64,000 bases of DNA, taken from the NCBI RefSeq assembly GCF_044324875.1, contig NZ_CP172185.1; one strand, given 5' to 3'. The notes below the pieces were generated by a model, which saw only the letters and a list, made by a program, of their open reading frames with translations, searched no databases and was not told the origin of the DNA. The stretch comes from Escherichia coli. Its GTDB lineage: Bacteria; Pseudomonadota; Gammaproteobacteria; Enterobacterales; Enterobacteriaceae. The stretch's first letter is position 1, and each line of letters opens with the position of its first letter. Positions 2,019 to 63,508 of the stretch are shown piece by piece. The position numbers and the translations under genes were made by a program.

Positions 2019-3111
2019 GGTTGTATTGCTGTGCCGTCCGGGCTTTGAAAAAGAGTGCGCCGCAGAAATTACCGATAAAGCCGGCCAGCGGGAAATTTTC
2101 GGTTTTGCCCGCGTGAAAGAGAATGCGGGTTATGTGATTTATGAATGTTATCAACCTGATGATGGCGATAAGTTAATCCGTGAGCTGCCGTTCAGTTCAT
2201 TAATTTTTGCCCGCCAGTGGTTTGTAGTGGGGGAACTCCTGCAGCATTTGCCGCCAGAAGATCGTATTACTCCCATTGTCGGCATGTTACAGGGCGTAGT
2301 AGAGAAGGGCGGTGAACTGCGTGTTGAAGTTGCCGATACCAACGAAAGCAAAGAGTTGCTGAAATTCTGCCGTAAATTCACCGTGCCGCTACGCGCTGCC
2401 TTGCGCGATGCGGGTGTGCTGGCGAACTATGAAACGCCGAAGCGTCCGGTTGTGCATGTATTCTTTATTGCACCAGGCTGCTGCTATACCGGTTACTCAT
2501 ACAGCAACAATAATTCGCCGTTCTATATGGGCATTCCGCGCCTGAAATTTCCGGCAGATGCGCCGAGTCGTTCCACGCTCAAACTGGAAGAGGCATTTCA
2601 TGTGTTTATTCCTGCGGATGAGTGGGATGAACGCCTGGCGAACGGGATGTGGGCGGTGGATTTAGGCGCTTGCCCAGGCGGCTGGACCTACCAACTGGTG
2701 AAGCGCAACATGTGGGTTTATTCCGTCGACAACGGCCCGATGGCGCAAAGTCTGATGGATACCGGACAGGTGACGTGGCTGCGGGAAGACGGTTTCAAAT
2801 TCCGTCCGACACGCAGCAATATCTCCTGGATGGTATGCGATATGGTTGAAAAACCGGCGAAAGTTGCGGCATTGATGGCGCAGTGGCTGGTTAATGGCTG
2901 GTGCCGTGAAACCATTTTCAACCTCAAACTGCCGATGAAAAAACGCTACGAAGAAGTGTCACACAATCTGGCGTATATTCAGGCACAGCTTGATGAACAT
3001 GGCATAAATGCTCAGATCCAGGCGCGGCAGTTGTATCACGATCGCGAAGAAGTGACGGTGCACGTCCGCCGTATCTGGGCTGCGGTGGGTGGTCGTCGCG
3101 ACGAGCGATAA
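2011..3111 (+). CDS. rlmM: 23S rRNA 2'-O-ribose C2498 methyltransferase RlmM
   Basis: 366-aa ORF beginning [16 protein letters not shown]; length and synteny match RlmM (YgdE). Confidence 0.9.
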
Positions 3112-3154
3112 CAGGCAAGGCCGGGGCGTCGTCTCCGGCCTGCTACCCTTTCCG

Positions 3155-3886
3155 TCAGGCTGTTACCAAAGAAGTTGCAACCTGGCGCTCATCAGAAATA
3201 ATGTGCGTTACCTCATCCAGATGCCCGATGCGGGCTTCCCCTGAACGATTAAATTTACTTTTATCAATCAATAACAACGATTGCGCGGCGCGTTTTAATA
3301 GCATTGATTTGTAATCAGCGTTGATGGCATTGGAGTCCCACAGTGCGCCGCTGCTATCGATCCCTTCACAAGAAAAAATAAACAGATCGATTTCCAGCGA
3401 TTTAAGTTGAGAAATCAGCGAGGGATTGACGTAACAGCCATATTTGCGCTCAAGTGTGCCGCCGGAACTGATCAGTTGAATGCGTTCGCGTTTACCGAGT
3501 TCATGGCAAATCGGATGGCTATTGGTGAAGACCTGGATGTTGATGTCAGGCAACTGGCGTGCCAGATACCAGCAGGTTGAACTTGCGTCTAAGGCTATTA
3601 CCATCCCTTCTTCAATCCACGCGAGCGCCTCGCGCGCGATATCTGCTTTATGCGCATAATGGCTTTTCAGCCGGATGTGAAAGGGATCGCCACTGTCTTG
3701 ATTTTGACGGTGGATATATTTAGCGCGCCCATGATTGCGCAGAATTTTACCCTGCGTCTGTAATTCATTGAGATCGCGACGAATGGTTTCTTTACTGACC
3801 TTTAGCTGTTCAGAGAGAGCTTCCGTGGTCAGGCTGGTATGGTTCAGCAGCAGGTCGACTATCGCTTGCTGGCGTGCCGCTTTCAT
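3155..3886 (-). CDS. fucR: DeoR-family L-fucose operon activator FucR
   Basis: ORF runs to 3895 (MKNMKAARQQ...); K-12 FucR begins MKAARQQAIVDLLLNHTSL, so start at 3886 is preferred; DeoR HTH plus sugar-binding domain. Confidence 0.9.
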   Translation of the reverse strand: MKAARQQAIVDLLLNHTSLTTEALSEQLKVSKETIRRDLNELQTQGKILRNHGRAKYIHRQNQDSGDPFHIRLKSHYAHKADIAREALAWIEEGMVIALDASSTCWYLARQLPDINIQVFTNSHPICHELGKRERIQLISSGGTLERKYGCYVNPSLISQLKSLEIDLFIFSCEGIDSSGALWDSNAINADYKSMLLKRAAQSLLLIDKSKFNRSGEARIGHLDEVTHIISDERQVATSLVTA

Positions 3887-3943
3887 ATTTTTCACCCCAT
3901 CATTCGATAACCGCCCGCGTCATGCGGGCGTACCGGTATGAGA

Positions 3944-4366
3944 TTACGGTGTTACCCCTTTTTTTAAAAGAATATTCCCGTACTTCGCTCGTTCGCCTGT
4001 GATAACGATCGCAAAGGCTTTTTGTGCCCGTTCATAAAACGCAAAACGATTGATGCGGATGATGTCAGGACACGGGGCTTGTAGTGAAAGCGCATTACGG
4101 TAACGTCGTTCTACTTCAGGATCGAGAGTGTCACCTTCTACCGCCGCCATCATCACCAGCGGCGGTGCATAACTGTCCAGTTCAAATAACGGGATAATCG
4201 CCTGGAGCAAGTCGCTCACCAACAGGCCATCAGCGCGGATCACCTGCGGTCCCATCGAATGGGCGGGAAAGTGAGCATCGGAAAAAATAATTTCATCTCC
4301 ATGCCCCATCTCTGCCAGCACTTTCAATAGTTCGGGAGAAATTAACGGCGAAATTGTTTTCAGCAT
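3944..4366 (-). CDS. fucU: L-fucose mutarotase FucU
   Basis: 140-aa ORF in the fucPIKUR operon; RbsD/FucU family. Confidence 0.9.
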
Positions 4367-18777: not shown

Positions 18778-19143
18778 GTCGACAGGGAGTCAGACAACGA
18801 AGTGAACATCAGGATGATGACACTTCTGAAGGACACACCAGGATGGTGTTTCAGGGAAAGGCTTCTGGATGAAGCGAAGAGGATGACGCAGGACGCGTTA
18901 AAGGACACCTCCAGGATGGAGAATGAGAACCGGTCAGGATGATTCGGTGGGTCAGGAAGGCCAGGGACACTTCAGGATGAAGTATCACATCGGGGTGGTG
19001 TGAGCAGGAAGCAATAGTTCAGGATGAACGATTGGCCGCAAGGCCAGAGGAAAAGTTGTCAAGGATGAGCAGGGAGCAACAAAAGTAGCTGGAATGCTGC
19101 GAAACGAACCGGGAGCACTGTGAATACAGTGCTCCCTTTTTTT
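18778..19143 (+). ncRNA. csrB: CsrB, CsrA-sequestering sRNA
   Basis: Begins GTCGACAGGGAGTCAGACAACGAAG; about 20 CAGGA(U)G / GGA motifs across 366 nt; ends with GC hairpin GGGAGCACTGT-GAAT-ACAGTGCTCCC plus T-run (19110-19143); between syd and yqcC as in K-12. Confidence 0.9.
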
Positions 19144-19188
19144 ATTCCTGCTATTCTTCGCGGCAGTTTTTCTTATTGAGGTTGCTTT

Positions 19189-56815: not shown

Positions 56816-57550
56816 ATGTCCAAACTCGATCTAAACGCCCTGAACGAACTGCCGAAGGTAGATCGCATTCTGGCGCTGGCAGAAACTAACGCCGAACTGG
56901 AAAAACTGGATGCTGAAGGCCGCGTTGCCTGGGCGCTGGATAATCTGCCCGGTGAATATGTACTTTCTTCCAGTTTCGGCATTCAGGCGGCGGTGAGCCT
57001 GCATCTGGTGAATCAGATTCACCCGGATATCCCGGTGATCCTGACCGATACGGGTTATCTGTTCCCGGAAACCTACCGCTTTATTGACGAGTTAACGGAC
57101 AAACTCAAGCTCAACCTGAAAGTGTACCGCGCTACCGAAAGCGCCGCCTGGCAGGAAGCGCGCTACGGCAAACTGTGGGAGCAGGGTGTTGAAGGCATTG
57201 AAAAGTACAATGACATCAACAAAGTCGAACCGATGAACCGGGCGCTGAAAGAACTGAATGCGCAAACGTGGTTTGCTGGCCTGCGCCGCGAACAATCCGG
57301 CAGTCGCGCCAATTTACCGGTGCTGGCAATTCAGCGTGGCGTATTTAAAGTGCTGCCGATTATCGACTGGGATAACCGAACGATATATCAGTATCTGCAA
57401 AAACATGGCCTGAAATATCATCCATTATGGGACGAAGGATATTTATCCGTCGGTGATACCCATACAACCCGTAAATGGGAACCCGGCATGGCGGAAGAAG
57501 AAACGCGTTTCTTTGGCTTAAAAAGGGAATGTGGGCTGCACGAAGGGTAA
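56816..57550 (+). CDS. cysH: phosphoadenosine phosphosulfate (PAPS) reductase CysH
   Basis: 244-aa form [23 protein letters not shown] with GAGGA RBS; ORF-track start at 56663 runs through the REP and is rejected. Confidence 0.95.
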
Positions 57551-57815
57551 AATATCGTACCGCTTAATAAACGTCTCTGTCTGAAAAGATGGGGGCGTTT
57601 TTATTTTGCGAGCAGCATTCCTGATTTTAAACGTGAACGCCGCTGGAAGAATTATCAAGTATAGAATGGCGTTGGGTGCTTGAGGCTGTCTGGCGTTAAG
57701 CATTCGCGAGGTTCCAGATGGACAAAAGCCCCAGGCGATATTTCTATCAACCTGAGGCCAGCGTTCGAACCTAAGCAATTCGAATGTTAGTCTCTTCTTT
57801 GCAGGGAGGCAAGAC

Positions 57816-57968
57816 ATGCTGACAAAATATGCCCTTGTGGCAATCATCGTACTGTGTTGTACAGTACTGGGATTCACGCTGATGGTAGGCGACTCGTTGT
57901 GTGAGTTGAGTATCAGAGAACGTGGTATGGAGTTTAAGGCAGTTCTCGCTTACGAATCGAAGAAGTAG
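57816..57968 (+). CDS. Hok/Gef-family type I toxin (50 aa), possibly the hokX/sokX locus
   Basis: [50 protein letters not shown]: one TM helix, conserved LCE...AYES Hok signature, GGGAGG RBS 6 bp upstream, GC hairpin 57974-57995 after the stop; missing from the ORF track because it is under 60 aa. Confidence 0.7.
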
Positions 57969-58319
57969 CCACCACGCGGGGGTAAAACCCCGCGTATTGA
58001 ATTGTGATGGTTTGGTCTCCTGCACCCTTTTTTAATTTATATTGTTTATGTGAATATTATGCCTATGTTTATTATTCATATATATTACGGATGAAAATTA
58101 TTTGATTATTCATAATGTGCAAAATGGCATCTGAATCGATCGCAGTTTGGCATTCGAATCGATCATGATTTGGCATCCATCTCCGATCACAGTTTGGCAT
58201 CACAATCGATCACGATTTGGCATGCTTCCGATCATTGATTGGCATCCTGCCAGTCACTCCGGGAATTAACTCTTTTCACCACAGTCTCCATTGCCGTGTT
58301 TAAACCAGTGGAGACGTCA

Positions 58320-59885
58320 ATGTCCAGAAAGAGAAAATCCAGGAGCACTATGGAAACCTGTTTTAAGATCCTTCAGCTCAAGTTCGACAAGAAGCTGACT
58401 AACCGTTGTATCGGACTGACGTTACACATCAGCGCCTCAACCGTTTTTGAGGTTCTTGCCCGCTTCAAAGCCTCTTCTCTGTCATGGCCATTACCTGCTG
58501 ATATATCCCATGACACGCTGGAGAAACTCATTTTTCCGCCCAAAGACACCTTTGCATCAGAGCTTGTAATGCCTGACATGTTGTACTTCGATACGGAAAT
58601 GAGAAAACCAGGTGTGACGCGGCAACTGTTGTGGATGGAATACAAGGCACAGGCGGGTAACAAAGCGATGGGATACTCGCACTTCTGCCGTTGCTACCGG
58701 GAGTGGAAAAAAACGCGACGTCTCTCCATGCGCCAGGAGCATCGTGCCGGCGAAAAGCTTTTTATCGACTTCTGTGGTCCTACGGTTCCTGTTATTAATC
58801 CGGACACCGGTGAGATACGCCGCGTGGCAATCTTCGTGGCCGTAATGGGGGCGTCCAACTATACCTACGTTGAAGCGTGCGAAGGTCAGGACATGATGTC
58901 ATGGTTAAATGCCCACAGCCGTTGCCTGACCTTCCTGGGCGGCGTACCGAAGCTGCTCATCCCCGATAACCTCAGAAGCGCAGTGAAAAAGGCCGATCGA
59001 TATGAGCCTGTCATCAACGACAGTTATCAGGCACTGGCTGAGCACTATGGCACGGTTATCATCCCGGCCCGACCACGCAAACCTAAAGATAAACCAAAAG
59101 CAGAAAACGGCGTCCTCATCGTTGAACGATGGCTTCTTGCCCGCATCCGTAATGAAACCTTCCACACGCTCAGGGCGCTGAATGCGCGCCTTAGGGAGTT
59201 ACTGACAGACATGAATAACCGGCCAATGAAGGGGTACGGCAATCAAACCCGTGCAGAACGCTTCCGCATACTGGATGCGCCAGCACTCTCTCCGCTGCCT
59301 CTGGCACCTTATGAATACACGGAATACAAAGCTGTGAAGGTTGGCCCTGACTACCACGTTGAATATGCCCGTCACTGGTACTCCGTTCCACACGAACTGG
59401 TCGGTCAGCGTCTGTCACTGAAGGCGGGGCAGTCGGTGGTACAGCTCTGGCACAAGGGGCAGTGTGTGGCGCAACATCCGCGCAGCACACATGAATATAA
59501 ACACACAACCAATCCGCTTCACATGCCAGAGCGCCACCGGCAGCACGGGACATGGACACCGGAACGCCTGATCGAGCAGGGAAAACGTACGGGCCCGTCC
59601 ACAGGCCGGGTGGTTGAATCCATGCTGAAGGCAAAACCCCATCCGGAACTGGCTTATCGTGCAGTTCTGGGGCTGCTGGCACTTCAGAAAAAATACGGCC
59701 CGGAACGGCTGGAAAAGGCCTGTTACGTTGCCCTGCACTATAACGCCCCTGACAGACGCTTTATCGACAATCTGCTGCGTCACCATCGGGAGAACCTGGA
59801 GCTTCCATTATCCCGCCAGGGCGAACAACATCCGGCATATGCTTCAGAGCATGAAAACCTGCGTGGTCCGGGCTACTACCACTGA
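58320..59885 (+). CDS. istA: IS21-family transposase IstA
   Basis: N-terminal HTH and DDE integrase core; start at MSRKRKSRS (58320) with GGAG RBS preferred over the ORF-track start 58239. Confidence 0.8.
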   Translation: MSRKRKSRSTMETCFKILQLKFDKKLTNRCIGLTLHISASTVFEVLARFKASSLSWPLPADISHDTLEKLIFPPKDTFASELVMPDMLYFDTEMRKPGVTRQLLWMEYKAQAGNKAMGYSHFCRCYREWKKTRRLSMRQEHRAGEKLFIDFCGPTVPVINPDTGEIRRVAIFVAVMGASNYTYVEACEGQDMMSWLNAHSRCLTFLGGVPKLLIPDNLRSAVKKADRYEPVINDSYQALAEHYGTVIIPARPRKPKDKPKAENGVLIVERWLLARIRNETFHTLRALNARLRELLTDMNNRPMKGYGNQTRAERFRILDAPALSPLPLAPYEYTEYKAVKVGPDYHVEYARHWYSVPHELVGQRLSLKAGQSVVQLWHKGQCVAQHPRSTHEYKHTTNPLHMPERHRQHGTWTPERLIEQGKRTGPSTGRVVESMLKAKPHPELAYRAVLGLLALQKKYGPERLEKACYVALHYNAPDRRFIDNLLRHHRENLELPLSRQGEQHPAYASEHENLRGPGYYH

Positions 59886-59901
59886 CAGAAGGAACAACAG
59901 T

Positions 59902-60657
59902 ATGAGTGATAACCTGTTAAACAAACTGACCCAACTGAAACTCCCGGCGATGGCCGGGAGCCTGATACGGCAGCGGGAAACGCCTCAGACCTACGACGAA
60001 CTGTCGTTCGAGGAAAGGCTGACGCTGCTGGTTGATGACGAGCTTCTGAGCAGGGAAAACAGCCGTGTGGCACGGTTGAGAAAAAATGCCGGCCTGAAAT
60101 ACCAGGCAACACCGGAAGGGCTGCGCTATCCGGCCTCAAGAGGTCTGCGGGCTGAACAGATGAGAGAACTGCTGAACGGCCACTACATAACCCACAGGAA
60201 AAACCTGCTGATAACCGGTCCGACAGGATGTGGCAAGAGCTGGATAGCCAATGCGCTGGGCGAACAGGCATGTCGACAGAAACACAGCGTCCGGTACTGT
60301 AGAACCGGGCGATTACTGGAACAACTGGCTCAGGGACGTGTTGATGGCAGCTGGCTGAAATATCTGAAACAGTTGCAAAAAATACAGGTTCTAATCCTGG
60401 ACGATCTGGGGCTGGAACAGTTAAGTAACGCCCAGTGTAATGACCTTCTGGAGCTCATAGAGGATCGTTACGGACAAAGCAGCACGATAGTGGTAAGCCA
60501 GTTCCCGGTAGATAAATGGCATGGTCTGATGGAGAACCCAACAACAGCAGATGCCATCCTGGACAGACTGGTACATAACTCACACCGAGTGGTCCTTCAG
60601 GGAGAGTCACTGAGGAAAAATCCCCCGGTAGTGGAAAGCAGCGAAAAAACGCGTTAA
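59902..60657 (+). CDS. istB: IS21-family ATP-binding helper IstB
   Basis: 251-aa form MSDNLLNKL... with Walker A GPTGCGKSW and Walker B LILDDLG; ORF-track start 59659 overlaps istA. Confidence 0.85.
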   Translation: MSDNLLNKLTQLKLPAMAGSLIRQRETPQTYDELSFEERLTLLVDDELLSRENSRVARLRKNAGLKYQATPEGLRYPASRGLRAEQMRELLNGHYITHRKNLLITGPTGCGKSWIANALGEQACRQKHSVRYCRTGRLLEQLAQGRVDGSWLKYLKQLQKIQVLILDDLGLEQLSNAQCNDLLELIEDRYGQSSTIVVSQFPVDKWHGLMENPTTADAILDRLVHNSHRVVLQGESLRKNPPVVESSEKTR

Positions 60658-60808
60658 AAAGCGGTAGAAAAAGTTAAGTTCCCGGTTGATCGAATGGATG
60701 CGAATCGCTGATCGGACTTCGATGCCAATCCGTGATCGAATAGAGCGGAATACGCACATAATGTAAATATTTTATTGAACGATATATATCACAGATAATT
60801 TTTAATAT

Positions 60809-63508
60809 ATGCGTAAATATCCTTTAAGTTTACTGAAGGATAAAAATATTGTGACTTTTTTTGATTTCTGGGGAAAAACCCGACGCGGCGAGAAAGACGG
60901 GGGCGACGACTATCACCTTCTTTGCTGGCATTCGCTGGATGTAGCCGCGATGGGCTATTTAATGGTTAAAAGCAATTGCTTCGGGCTGACTGACTATTTT
61001 CGTCAACTAGGTTTCGCTGATACGGAGCAGGCAGCACAATTTTTCGCCTGGCTATTGTGCTGGCACGATACTGGAAAATTTGCCCGCTCTTTTCAGCAAC
61101 TTTACCTGCACCCACAACTCAAGGTTCCGGAAGGCGCAAGAAAGAATTACGAAAAGATCTCTCATTCAACGCTGGGCTACTGGCTGTGGCATCATTATTT
61201 AAGTGAATACGAAGAATTGCTTCCTTCATCTTCACTCTCTCCGCGCAAACTTAAACGGGTGATGGAGATGTGGATGCCCATAACTACCGGGCATCATGGT
61301 CGCCCGCCTGACCGTATTGATGAACTGGATAATTTTCTGCCTGAAGACAAAGCTGCCGCGCGAGATTTTCTTCTTGAAATCAAACCACTGTTTCCGCTCA
61401 TAGAGATCCCCGCATTCTGGGATGATGATGAGGGCATTGAACTTATAAAACACCTTTCCTGGTATATCTCTGCAACCGTCGTGCTCGCAGACTGGACGGG
61501 TTCGTCAACGCGATTTTTTCCACGCGTCGCACACCCAATGGATATTAAAGGTTACTGGCAGAAAACTTTAGTTCAGGCTCAAAACGCCTTAACCGTCTTT
61601 CCTCTAAAAGCAAAAGTCGCGCCTTTCACCGGAATTAATACGCTGTTTCCTTTTATTGAGAATCCGACACCGTTACAGCAAAAGGTGCTGGATCTGGATA
61701 TCAGCCAGCCAGGGCCACAGTTATTTATTCTGGAAGATGTGACTGGCGCAGGTAAAACGGAAGCGGCGCTTATCCTGGCGCACAGGTTGATGGCTGCGGG
61801 TAAAGCGCAGGGTTTGTTTTTTGGCCTGCCAACAATGGCAACGGCCAATGCCATGTACGATCGACTGGTCAAAACCTGGCTTGCTTTCTATTCGCCAGAG
61901 TCCCGCCCCAGCCTGGTGCTGGCACACAGTGCCCGAACATTAATGGACCGCTTTAATGAATCACTCTGGTCCGGTGATTTAGTCGGGTCAGAAGAACCGG
62001 ATGAACAAACGTTCAGTCAGGGATGTGCGGCCTGGTTTGCCGACAGTAACAAGAAGGCGCTACTGGCTGAAATTGGCGTCGGCACGCTGGATCAGGCGAT
62101 GATGGCTGTGATGCCGTTCAAACATAATAATCTGCGGCTTCTGGGACTGAGTAACAAAATCCTGCTGGCTGATGAGATCCATGCCTGTGACGCTTACATG
62201 TCATGCATTCTTGAAGGGCTGATCGAGCGGCAGGCGCGTGGCGGAAACAGCGTCATTTTGCTTTCTGCCACGTTATCTCAACAGCAGTGCGACAAACTCG
62301 TTGCTGCCTTTGCGCGTGGTACAGAGGGCCAGCAAGAAGCTCCGTTCCTGGAAAAGGATGATTACCCCTGGCTGACGCACGTTACGAAATCCGATGTGCA
62401 TTCACACCGGGTAGCGACGCGCAAAGACGTTGAGCGTAGCGTGAGCGTGGGTTGGCTTCATAGCGAACAAGAATGTATTGCGCGTATCGAATCGGCAGTA
62501 AGTCAGGGGAAATGCATCGCCTGGATCCGGAATTCTGTCGATGACGCTATTAAGGTTTATCGTCAGTTGCTTGCCCGCGGCGTCATTCCTGCTTCCAGCC
62601 TTTCTCTGTTTCATAGCCGCTTTGCTTTTAGCGATCGCCAGCGAATTGAAACGGAAACGCTGGCACGCTTCGGTAAAGAAGATAGCTCACAGCGTGCCGG
62701 AAAAGTCCTCATTTGTACTCAGGTCTTAGAGTCGAGCGTTGATTGCGATATGGACGAAATGATTTCCGACCTGGCCCCTGTTGATTTGCTGATCCAGCGA
62801 GCGGGGCGATTACAGCGGCATATCCGCGATATTAATGGTCAGTTAAAGCGTGACGGAAAAGACGAGCGTTCCCCTCCTGAATTGCTGATTCTGGCCCCCG
62901 TCTGGGACGACGCTCCAGGTGACGAATGGTTCGGCAGTGCCATGCGTAACAGTGCATATGTCTATCCCGATCATGGACGAATCTGGCTGACGCAGCGTGT
63001 ACTGCGTGAGCAAGGCGCTATTCAAATGCCACACGCAGCCCGCCTTCTTATTGAATCAGTCTACGGTGAGGACGTGGTAATGCCGGAAGGATTTGCCCGC
63101 AGCGAGCAGGAGCAAGTGGGCAAATATTACTGCGATCGCGCAATGGCTAAAAAGTTTGTGCTGAACTTCAGGCCTGGCTATGCCGCCAATATCAACGATT
63201 ACCTTCCGGAAAAGCTGTCGACACGTCTGGCGGAGGAGTCTGTTTCCCTGTGGCTGGCTACCTGTATTGCCAGTGTGGTGAAGCCTTATGCCAACGGTGC
63301 TCACGCATGGGAAATGAGCGTTGTCAGAGTGCGTCGAAGCTGGTGGAAAAAACATCGGGATGAGTTTTCTTTACTGGAAGGGGAAGCGTTCAGGCAGTGG
63401 TGCATTGAACAGCGGAAAGATCCGGAGATGGCAAACGTGATTTTAGTTACCGATGACGAAAGTTGCGGGTATTCGGCTATGGAAGGATTGACTGGCAAGG
63501 TTGGTTGA
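60809..63508 (+). CDS. cas3: CRISPR-associated helicase/nuclease Cas3 (type I-E, non-K-12 sequence variant)
   Basis: 899-aa ORF: N-terminal HD domain (HSLDVAAMGYL, CWHDTGK), DEAD/DEAH helicase (Walker A GAGKTEA, LADEIHA); clearly diverged from the K-12 Cas3 sequence I recall. Confidence 0.85.
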   Translation: MRKYPLSLLKDKNIVTFFDFWGKTRRGEKDGGDDYHLLCWHSLDVAAMGYLMVKSNCFGLTDYFRQLGFADTEQAAQFFAWLLCWHDTGKFARSFQQLYLHPQLKVPEGARKNYEKISHSTLGYWLWHHYLSEYEELLPSSSLSPRKLKRVMEMWMPITTGHHGRPPDRIDELDNFLPEDKAAARDFLLEIKPLFPLIEIPAFWDDDEGIELIKHLSWYISATVVLADWTGSSTRFFPRVAHPMDIKGYWQKTLVQAQNALTVFPLKAKVAPFTGINTLFPFIENPTPLQQKVLDLDISQPGPQLFILEDVTGAGKTEAALILAHRLMAAGKAQGLFFGLPTMATANAMYDRLVKTWLAFYSPESRPSLVLAHSARTLMDRFNESLWSGDLVGSEEPDEQTFSQGCAAWFADSNKKALLAEIGVGTLDQAMMAVMPFKHNNLRLLGLSNKILLADEIHACDAYMSCILEGLIERQARGGNSVILLSATLSQQQCDKLVAAFARGTEGQQEAPFLEKDDYPWLTHVTKSDVHSHRVATRKDVERSVSVGWLHSEQECIARIESAVSQGKCIAWIRNSVDDAIKVYRQLLARGVIPASSLSLFHSRFAFSDRQRIETETLARFGKEDSSQRAGKVLICTQVLESSVDCDMDEMISDLAPVDLLIQRAGRLQRHIRDINGQLKRDGKDERSPPELLILAPVWDDAPGDEWFGSAMRNSAYVYPDHGRIWLTQRVLREQGAIQMPHAARLLIESVYGEDVVMPEGFARSEQEQVGKYYCDRAMAKKFVLNFRPGYAANINDYLPEKLSTRLAEESVSLWLATCIASVVKPYANGAHAWEMSVVRVRRSWWKKHRDEFSLLEGEAFRQWCIEQRKDPEMANVILVTDDESCGYSAMEGLTGKVG

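Follow-up and report, generated by a model that had tools for sequence, protein, structure and literature searches.

Loci of the hok/sok family are known from both plasmids and the E. coli chromosome. In the hok/sok system of R1 (parB), translation of mok is needed only as far as the hok Shine-Dalgarno (SD) sequence (PMC9841398). On the chromosome, the names hokX and sokX are used for a locus adjoining cysH in papers that describe K-12 as carrying sokX only (PMC7232551, PMC12736100, PMC3903273). The hok-5 gene of strain NRG857c, which lies in the cysH-iap region, is a homolog of hokX of E. coli B (PMC7232551). The chromosomal hok loci of K-12 have been described as inactive (PMC7232551). Among 237 urinary isolates, 90 % carry hok together with sokX beside cysH, and the remainder have sokX only, like K-12 (PMC12736100). 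The hokX/sokX locus is thus already known, in that it is named in the literature and its toxin gene is annotated, and an intact gene is the common state in E. coli.

The window examined here, a stretch of 64,000 nucleotides of E. coli DNA, carries such a locus at positions 57551-58040. We consider it highly probable that this is the chromosomal hokX/sokX, a structurally complete type I toxin-antitoxin locus of the hok/sok family that would, by analogy, work like that of R1. A megablast comparison found a match to 57551-58040 in 5,425 of 5,426 complete E. coli genomes, and 4,145 of the 5,426 contain 80 % of it or more, always on the chromosome and always adjoining cysH. Identity of the region to the window is 93.8-100 % across thousands of E. 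coli genomes, in which the toxin ORF is annotated as 'Hok/Gef family protein'. The best genome match, at 100 %, is strain AF40, where the gene order is cysJIH, hok (WP_000956458.1) and cas3. The original prediction had proposed a hok/sok-type locus with an intact toxin gene of the Hok family, and the Pfam, Rfam and genome matches, together with comparison of the ORF, agree with it. It had also placed the gene between cysH, which ends at 57550 and has a terminator of its own (57569-57600) with a T-run behind it, and cas3, which starts (ATG) at 60809. This placement is right as to the flanking genes, but it overlooked a 2,638-bp IS21-family element between hok and cas3. The suggestion that an intact frame is noteworthy at this position did not hold, as the gene is intact in 4,145 of the 5,426 genomes, hokX is in the literature and it is K-12 that is exceptional. 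A functional link between hokX and cas3 was set aside because the same locus adjoins iap in strains that lack cas genes. The hokX/sokX locus belongs to the ordinary make-up of the E. coli chromosome, beside the CRISPR-Cas I-E region, and its presence here matters little past correct annotation. The window also contains two ordinary E. coli small RNA genes, csrB on the plus strand (18787-19146; CsrB, Rfam 382.9 bits) and gcvB on the minus strand (353-558; GcvB, Rfam 199 bits).

The hokX toxin ORF occupies 57816-57968 on the plus strand and encodes 50 amino acids from an ATG start, followed by a stop codon. Its SD sequence, GGGAGG (57804-57809, plus strand), lies 6 nt before the ATG, so that the predicted 50-codon ORF with a GGGAGG ribosome-binding site (RBS) and a Hok/Gef product was found where it had been placed. 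The peptide matches the Pfam HOK_GEF model (PF01848) with an E value of 6.3e-10, residues 5-46 covering model positions 1-42 of 42, and is identical to WP_000956458.1, the RefSeq 'Hok/Gef family protein'. It has an N-terminal hydrophobic helix followed by the motifs DSLCEL and LAYESKK, of which SLCE and LAYE are invariant in related peptides. Homologs occur by the hundred across the Enterobacteriaceae, 318 of them with a PF01848 match. An assignment to particular subfamilies fared less well. The peptide scored 53 bits against the NCBIfam HokA model (NF007290; cut-off 89) and 39.5 bits against the Hok subfamily model (NF007279; cut-off 73), and because both scores fall below the curated cut-offs, we rejected the idea that the peptide is a HokA ortholog.

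The ORF appears to have been maintained as a coding sequence. All six of the E. coli loci sampled, namely L004 and L006-L009 (five genomes, 93.8-97.2 % identical to the window in this region) and the metagenomic contig L010, showed no non-synonymous and only one or two synonymous differences from the window. Against loci of Klebsiella, Citrobacter and Enterobacter and the E. coli hokE-type paralogs, pN/pS ranged from 0.14 to 0.37. Judged from these patterns of substitution, the hokX ORF is under purifying selection. Inactivating changes in the ORF, which had been named as grounds for abandoning the original prediction, were looked for and none was found; the gene is intact in this respect.

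The region upstream of the ORF corresponds to a complete hok mRNA leader. Positions 57674-57831 match Rfam family RF01794 with 111.7 bits (gathering score 59) over model positions 1-157 of 157, and since what this model describes is the leader of the hok mRNA, between the 5' end and the hok AUG, the match falls on the plus strand. A putative -10 hexamer of the hok promoter, TAGAAT (57662-57667, plus strand), was recognized by conservation, the pattern TAnnAT being kept in the 11 aligned loci that reach the site, 6-7 nt before the conserved GGGTGC 5' end; no convincing -35 element was found for this promoter. The 5' end of the mRNA was taken as 57674 (GGGUGCUUGAGG), where both the Rfam model and the conservation begin, and the 3' end as the U-run at 58028-58033. 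The full-length transcript would therefore run on the plus strand for about 360 nt (57674-58033), from the conserved GGGUGC to the T-run after the fbi element. A weak Rfam match to ctRNA_p42d at 57567-57609, just downstream of cysH, was dismissed with 26 bits against a threshold of 50; it coincides with the cysH terminator hairpin, and the resemblance is due to chance.

Folding of the hok mRNA for tac and fbi elements had been suggested as a check, and the predicted minimum free energy (MFE) fold of 57674-58033 (-128.9 kcal/mol, z = -3.6) has its 5' and 3' ends paired. The tac element at the 5' end (GGGUGCUUGAGGCU, 57674-57687, plus strand) pairs with 58014-58027, which belongs to the fbi element (GGUCUCCUGCACCC followed by the U6 run of the putative 3' end; 58014-58033, plus strand). 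The tac/fbi duplex has a predicted energy of -20.6 kcal/mol, which none of 300 shuffled sequences equaled, and comparable duplexes are formed in Klebsiella, Citrobacter, Enterobacter and hokE-type loci although the sequences of both partners differ. In the full-length fold, 57997-58013 pairs with 57767-57783, the hok SD with 57794-57800, and the plus-strand GAGG at 57754-57757 with 57729-57732. This GAGG is an SD sequence at the position of the mok SD and aligns to GaGGC of the Rfam consensus.

A GC hairpin with an 8-bp stem follows the hok stop codon on the plus strand (ACGCGGGG-GTAAAA-CCCCGCGT, 57974-57995), as the original prediction had it. The hairpin is conserved in relatives, with changes in both loop and stem, and is the probable stop point for 3' trimming of the hok mRNA. 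An RNA truncated at this point (57674-57997) is predicted to refold into the shape of the Rfam consensus, in which the 5' end folds locally (57674-57705) and GAGGC (57754-57758) pairs with GUCUC (57790-57794). Both the truncated fold and the Rfam consensus structure contain a Sok-target hairpin at 57760-57788 (plus strand), with a 10-bp stem and the loop CCUAAGCAA.

Complementary to this leader is the SokX antisense RNA, 59 nt on the minus strand from 57776 to 57718, which was placed by homology to the annotated MG1655 noncoding RNA sokX (b4701). The MG1655 RNA and the window agree at 57 of 59 positions; nucleotides 6-59 correspond exactly to 57771-57718, and the two SNPs lie within the first 5 nt. 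The predicted fold of SokX (-22.7 kcal/mol, z = -3.6) leaves a 5' tail single-stranded, with a terminator-like hairpin and a U-run behind it, and the 5' end of SokX, GCUUAGG, is complementary to the loop of the Sok-target hairpin. A putative sok promoter spans 57784-57812 on the minus strand, with a -35 box TTGCCT (57812-57807), a 17-nt spacer, a -10 box TAACAT (57789-57784) and 7 nt to the start of SokX. Its hexamers and their spacing are conserved in 12 aligned related loci, and sokE/hokE of K-12 is annotated with a homologous promoter layout. A scan of 57500-58150 for sigma-70 promoter and terminator consensus sequences reported neither the hok nor the sok promoter and gave one chance site within the ORF plus the cysH terminator. 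The cut-off of the scan was 9 of 12 consensus positions, and the sok promoter was missed because it matches 8 of 12; for this reason its position was deduced from conservation and from where SokX is annotated to start. Taken together, the locus appears to encode in cis an antisense Sok RNA that has its own promoter and is complementary to the leader. The expectation that Sok would lie on the minus strand around the hok RBS was right about the strand, but the body of the RNA is 40 nt upstream of the hok ATG. The sok promoter alone, and not the SokX RNA, overlaps the hok RBS (with its -35 box) and the ATG of an upstream ORF (with its -10 box).

By analogy to R1, these elements, their homology and the predicted pairings suggest how transcripts, processing, translational coupling and toxicity might be connected at this locus. 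A weak promoter would give rise to the full-length hok mRNA, in which tac pairs with fbi, and the resulting fold would bury the GAGG SD, the Sok target and the hok RBS. We propose that, with these sites buried, the full-length RNA would be neither translated nor bound by Sok. Slow 3' trimming to the hairpin at 57974-57995 would remove fbi and allow the RNA to refold, so that a local hairpin forms at the 5' end and the loop CCUAAGCAA presents the Sok target. SokX, transcribed from the promoter over the hok RBS, may then bind this loop by its free 5' end and pair across 57718-57776, which would block upstream translation and mark the hok mRNA for decay. Once SokX is exhausted, ribosomes that start upstream would open the hok RBS, the sole candidate for such a start being a 12-codon ORF at 57784. 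The 50-aa membrane peptide Hok would then be made and would damage the inner membrane.

The single step at which the locus departs from the R1 scheme is the start of upstream translation. The classical in-frame mok start position (57765-57767, plus strand) is 7 nt after GAGG and inside the Sok target, and it reads TCG in the window, which is not a start codon. The window thus has no mok frame that starts in the Sok-covered region just after GAGG and overlaps hok. The same TCG is found in seven other inspected E. coli loci (L001, L002, L004, L007, L008, L009 and MG1655, the last read through its identity with L001). The mok position is ATG only in L010, an Escherichia-like metagenomic contig, and in L011 from Klebsiella and L014 from Enterobacter; for these three loci, gene callers give N-extended Hok proteins of 67 aa that begin at this ATG. 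The ATG haplotype of L010 had no match in the 5,426 E. coli genomes when searched as a 40-mer whose 28-nt seeds all span the allele, and over its full length L010 is at most 93.7 % identical to E. coli.

A candidate substitute for mok is the 12-codon upstream ORF at 57784-57822 (plus strand), which crosses the hok SD and whose TGA overlaps the hok ATG in the string ATGCTGA. The original prediction had called this ORF mok-like. It does lie at these positions and does overlap the hok start, but it is not a homolog of R1 mok, whose classical start corresponds to the TCG. Its ATG (57784) is invariant in 12 of 12 aligned related loci, is preceded by a weak SD-like sequence (AAG), and lies 8 nt outside the Sok duplex, coinciding with the sok -10 box. 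Since this ATG is the CAT of the -10 box read from the other strand, the -10 box by itself could explain its conservation. In R1, mok need only reach the hok SD, and a 12-codon ORF that ends at the hok start could therefore suffice. The AUG equivalent to 57784 opens the 12-codon ORF in hokX and an in-frame extension of 12 residues in hokE. As a tentative explanation, it is possible that the hokX and hokE-type loci of E. coli have lost the Sok-covered mok start and that coupling has moved to the conserved AUG 19 nt downstream, or else that the peptide is conserved for a reason besides its expression from the native locus. If coupling has moved to an AUG that the Sok duplex does not cover and that falls within the sok -10 box, the locus would represent a variant control logic within the hok/sok family. 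The occurrence of TCG in E. coli versus ATG in Klebsiella and Enterobacter poses a simple, testable question about translation coupling at chromosomal hok loci.

It is also conceivable, but in our judgment unlikely, that the locus is intact in sequence and translationally silent, such that loss of the mok start means Hok is never made natively and what persists is a SokX/hok-leader pair or a relic. The TCG in the window and the seven other E. coli loci fits this explanation, as do the ATG of Klebsiella, Enterobacter and a single metagenomic contig and the lack of its haplotype among the 5,426 E. coli genomes. Toxicity is lost in R1 when the mok start codon is mutated (PMC9841398), and the sokX/hok-leader region of EHEC is low in RNA and ribosome coverage (PMC5331693). 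A silent gene would not be expected, however, to specify an identical peptide in sampled E. coli loci of 94-100 % DNA identity that differ by synonymous changes only, and pN/pS values of 0.14-0.37 are hard to explain if the ORF is not translated, though constraints on RNA structure also act on it. Silence is likewise at odds with the upstream ATG, which opens a frame reading through the hok SD and is invariant in the 12 aligned loci, and with the recurrence in other strains of IS insertions that cut off fbi or the leader, which are expected if an intact locus has a cost. We therefore favor a hokX/sokX locus that is structurally complete and would operate in the manner of R1.

The insertion in the window bears on a different question, namely whether this particular copy has been disrupted. 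The element is an ISSso4-like member of the IS21 family of 2,638 bp with istA and istB (58119-60756), flanked by direct repeats of 8 bp (CATAATGT) at 58111-58118 and 60757-60764. Elsewhere in E. coli there are elements 100 % identical to the inserted 2,638 bp, with the annotation 'IS21 family transposase / ISSso4 family IstB', but the junction at this position between hokX and cas3 occurs in none of the 5,426 complete E. coli genomes, so that the insertion is private to the strain. Compared with AF40, which lacks the IS, positions 57500-58118 are 99.8 % identical, with one mismatch in 619 nt at about 58089, outside the hok/sok elements; beyond the element, AF40 aligns again from 60757, the two aligned blocks overlapping by 8 bp. 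The insertion point is 85 bp past the T-run of hok, which leaves hokX/sokX whole. At its other end the element stops 52 bp upstream of the cas3 ATG, and cas3 may have been cut off by it from control sequences further upstream. In the left end of the element (58125-58250), the pattern GATC(N)nTTTGGCAT recurs several times as imperfect direct repeats, presumably the multiple terminal repeats typical of IS21-family elements. An Rfam match to snR67 in these terminal repeats (E = 0.87) was dismissed as chance.

Insertions at other points of the same locus are found in other strains. An IS421 at about 57990, some 22 bp after the hokX stop, cuts fbi off (L004, from about 2923 onward), and in strain VTB97432v, which has this IS421, fbi was not found within 120 nt of the hok stop. 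One strain also has an IS150 at about 57748, inside the hok leader and SokX region (L005, insertions at 1107-2476 and 2914-4026). Loci of the hokX type are evidently a recurrent target of IS elements, like hokE of K-12 with its IS186. Given this record, it might be supposed that the IS21-family element just downstream (58119-60756) inactivates the locus of the window, as IS elements do at hokA, hokC and hokE of K-12; the IS186 of K-12 hokE, whose annotation begins 19 bp past the hok stop, and the IS421 insertions in the same locus of other strains would be parallels. We regard this as very improbable and rejected it on the position of the insertion, which is 85 bp beyond fbi and the T-run, while every hok/sok element is the same as in the IS-free AF40. 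The locus is thus best read as a structurally complete hokX/sokX that has an IS element as its neighbor.

Relatives of hokX also occur in other arrangements. Two copies stand in tandem in an Enterobacter contig (L014, 972-1653), and three in an E. coli hokE-type locus (L015, 997-2156) between a gene of the GCS2 family and one for a phosphopantetheinyl transferase. A Klebsiella relative (L011, 1501-1704) adjoins mutS, and relatives are found in unrelated chromosomal contexts. The tandem copies and varied contexts suggest duplication and movement of the hok module.

The statement in the original prediction that sokX alone is annotated at this position in K-12 was accurate, as the noncoding RNA sokX (b4701) is the only feature annotated in the cysH-cas3 interval of MG1655. 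The alignment to the K-12 cysH-cas3 spacer that had been recommended accounts for this. The K-12 match ends at 57818, the G of the hok ATG, with the breakpoint at 57818/57819 of the window (L001, 2751/2752), and only sokX is annotated there because K-12 matches no further than the hok ATG. Past the breakpoint, K-12 has the upstream region of its own type (E2) of cas3, so that the leader and sokX are left without a toxin gene. Replacement of the DNA beyond the ATG is the reason that K-12 lacks the hokX ORF, and the absence of hokX from K-12 is a known consequence of replacement by the cas-E2 module. The locus of the window looks unusual only because K-12 lost the toxin gene. That the ORF is open by chance and the small RNA alone is real, as the annotation of sokX alone in K-12 might suggest, is hardly credible given the full-length Pfam Hok/Gef match, the 78 % identity to annotated HokE, the hundreds of homologs in Enterobacteriaceae, the evidence for purifying selection and the replacement of the K-12 DNA after the ATG. 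In practice, annotation pipelines that take K-12 as their reference miss the toxin gene, and pipelines that consider only ORFs miss SokX.

Compared with the described systems, the hokX/sokX of the window resembles R1 hok/sok (parB) in having a Hok/Gef peptide, an RF01794 leader, tac/fbi pairing, a Sok RNA directed against the leader and a sok promoter over the hok initiation region, as well as a refolding switch after 3' trimming, which here is predicted (mechanism: PMC9841398). It differs in that R1 has a mok of 70 codons, whereas hokX has no start codon at the classical mok position and only the 12-codon upstream ORF. The hokX peptide also shares no more than about 42-44 % identity with Hok/Gef proteins encoded by E. 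coli plasmids, and since the locus is chromosomal, the plasmid-maintenance role of the R1 type does not apply to it.

The closest paralog is hokE/sokE of K-12, in the ybdK-entD region, whose peptide is 78 % identical to that of hokX. Alignment of hokE with hokX extends to the leader, the position of Sok, the boxes of the sok promoter, the conserved upstream ATG and the hairpin after the stop codon. In hokE-type loci, an insertion of 4 nt before the hok ATG, which hokX lacks, puts the conserved upstream ATG in frame. The alignment of K-12 hokE with the window breaks off within the post-stop hairpin, 2 bp short of where IS186B is annotated to begin, and fbi has been removed; hokX in the window, unlike K-12 hokE, keeps its fbi. 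The hokX/sokX of E. coli in the cysH-cas3/iap region is the same locus with the same flanking cysH, and the locus in the window itself differs from it in nothing. What sets the window apart from other hokX/sokX loci is the private ISSso4-like insertion 85 bp downstream, between hokX and cas3.
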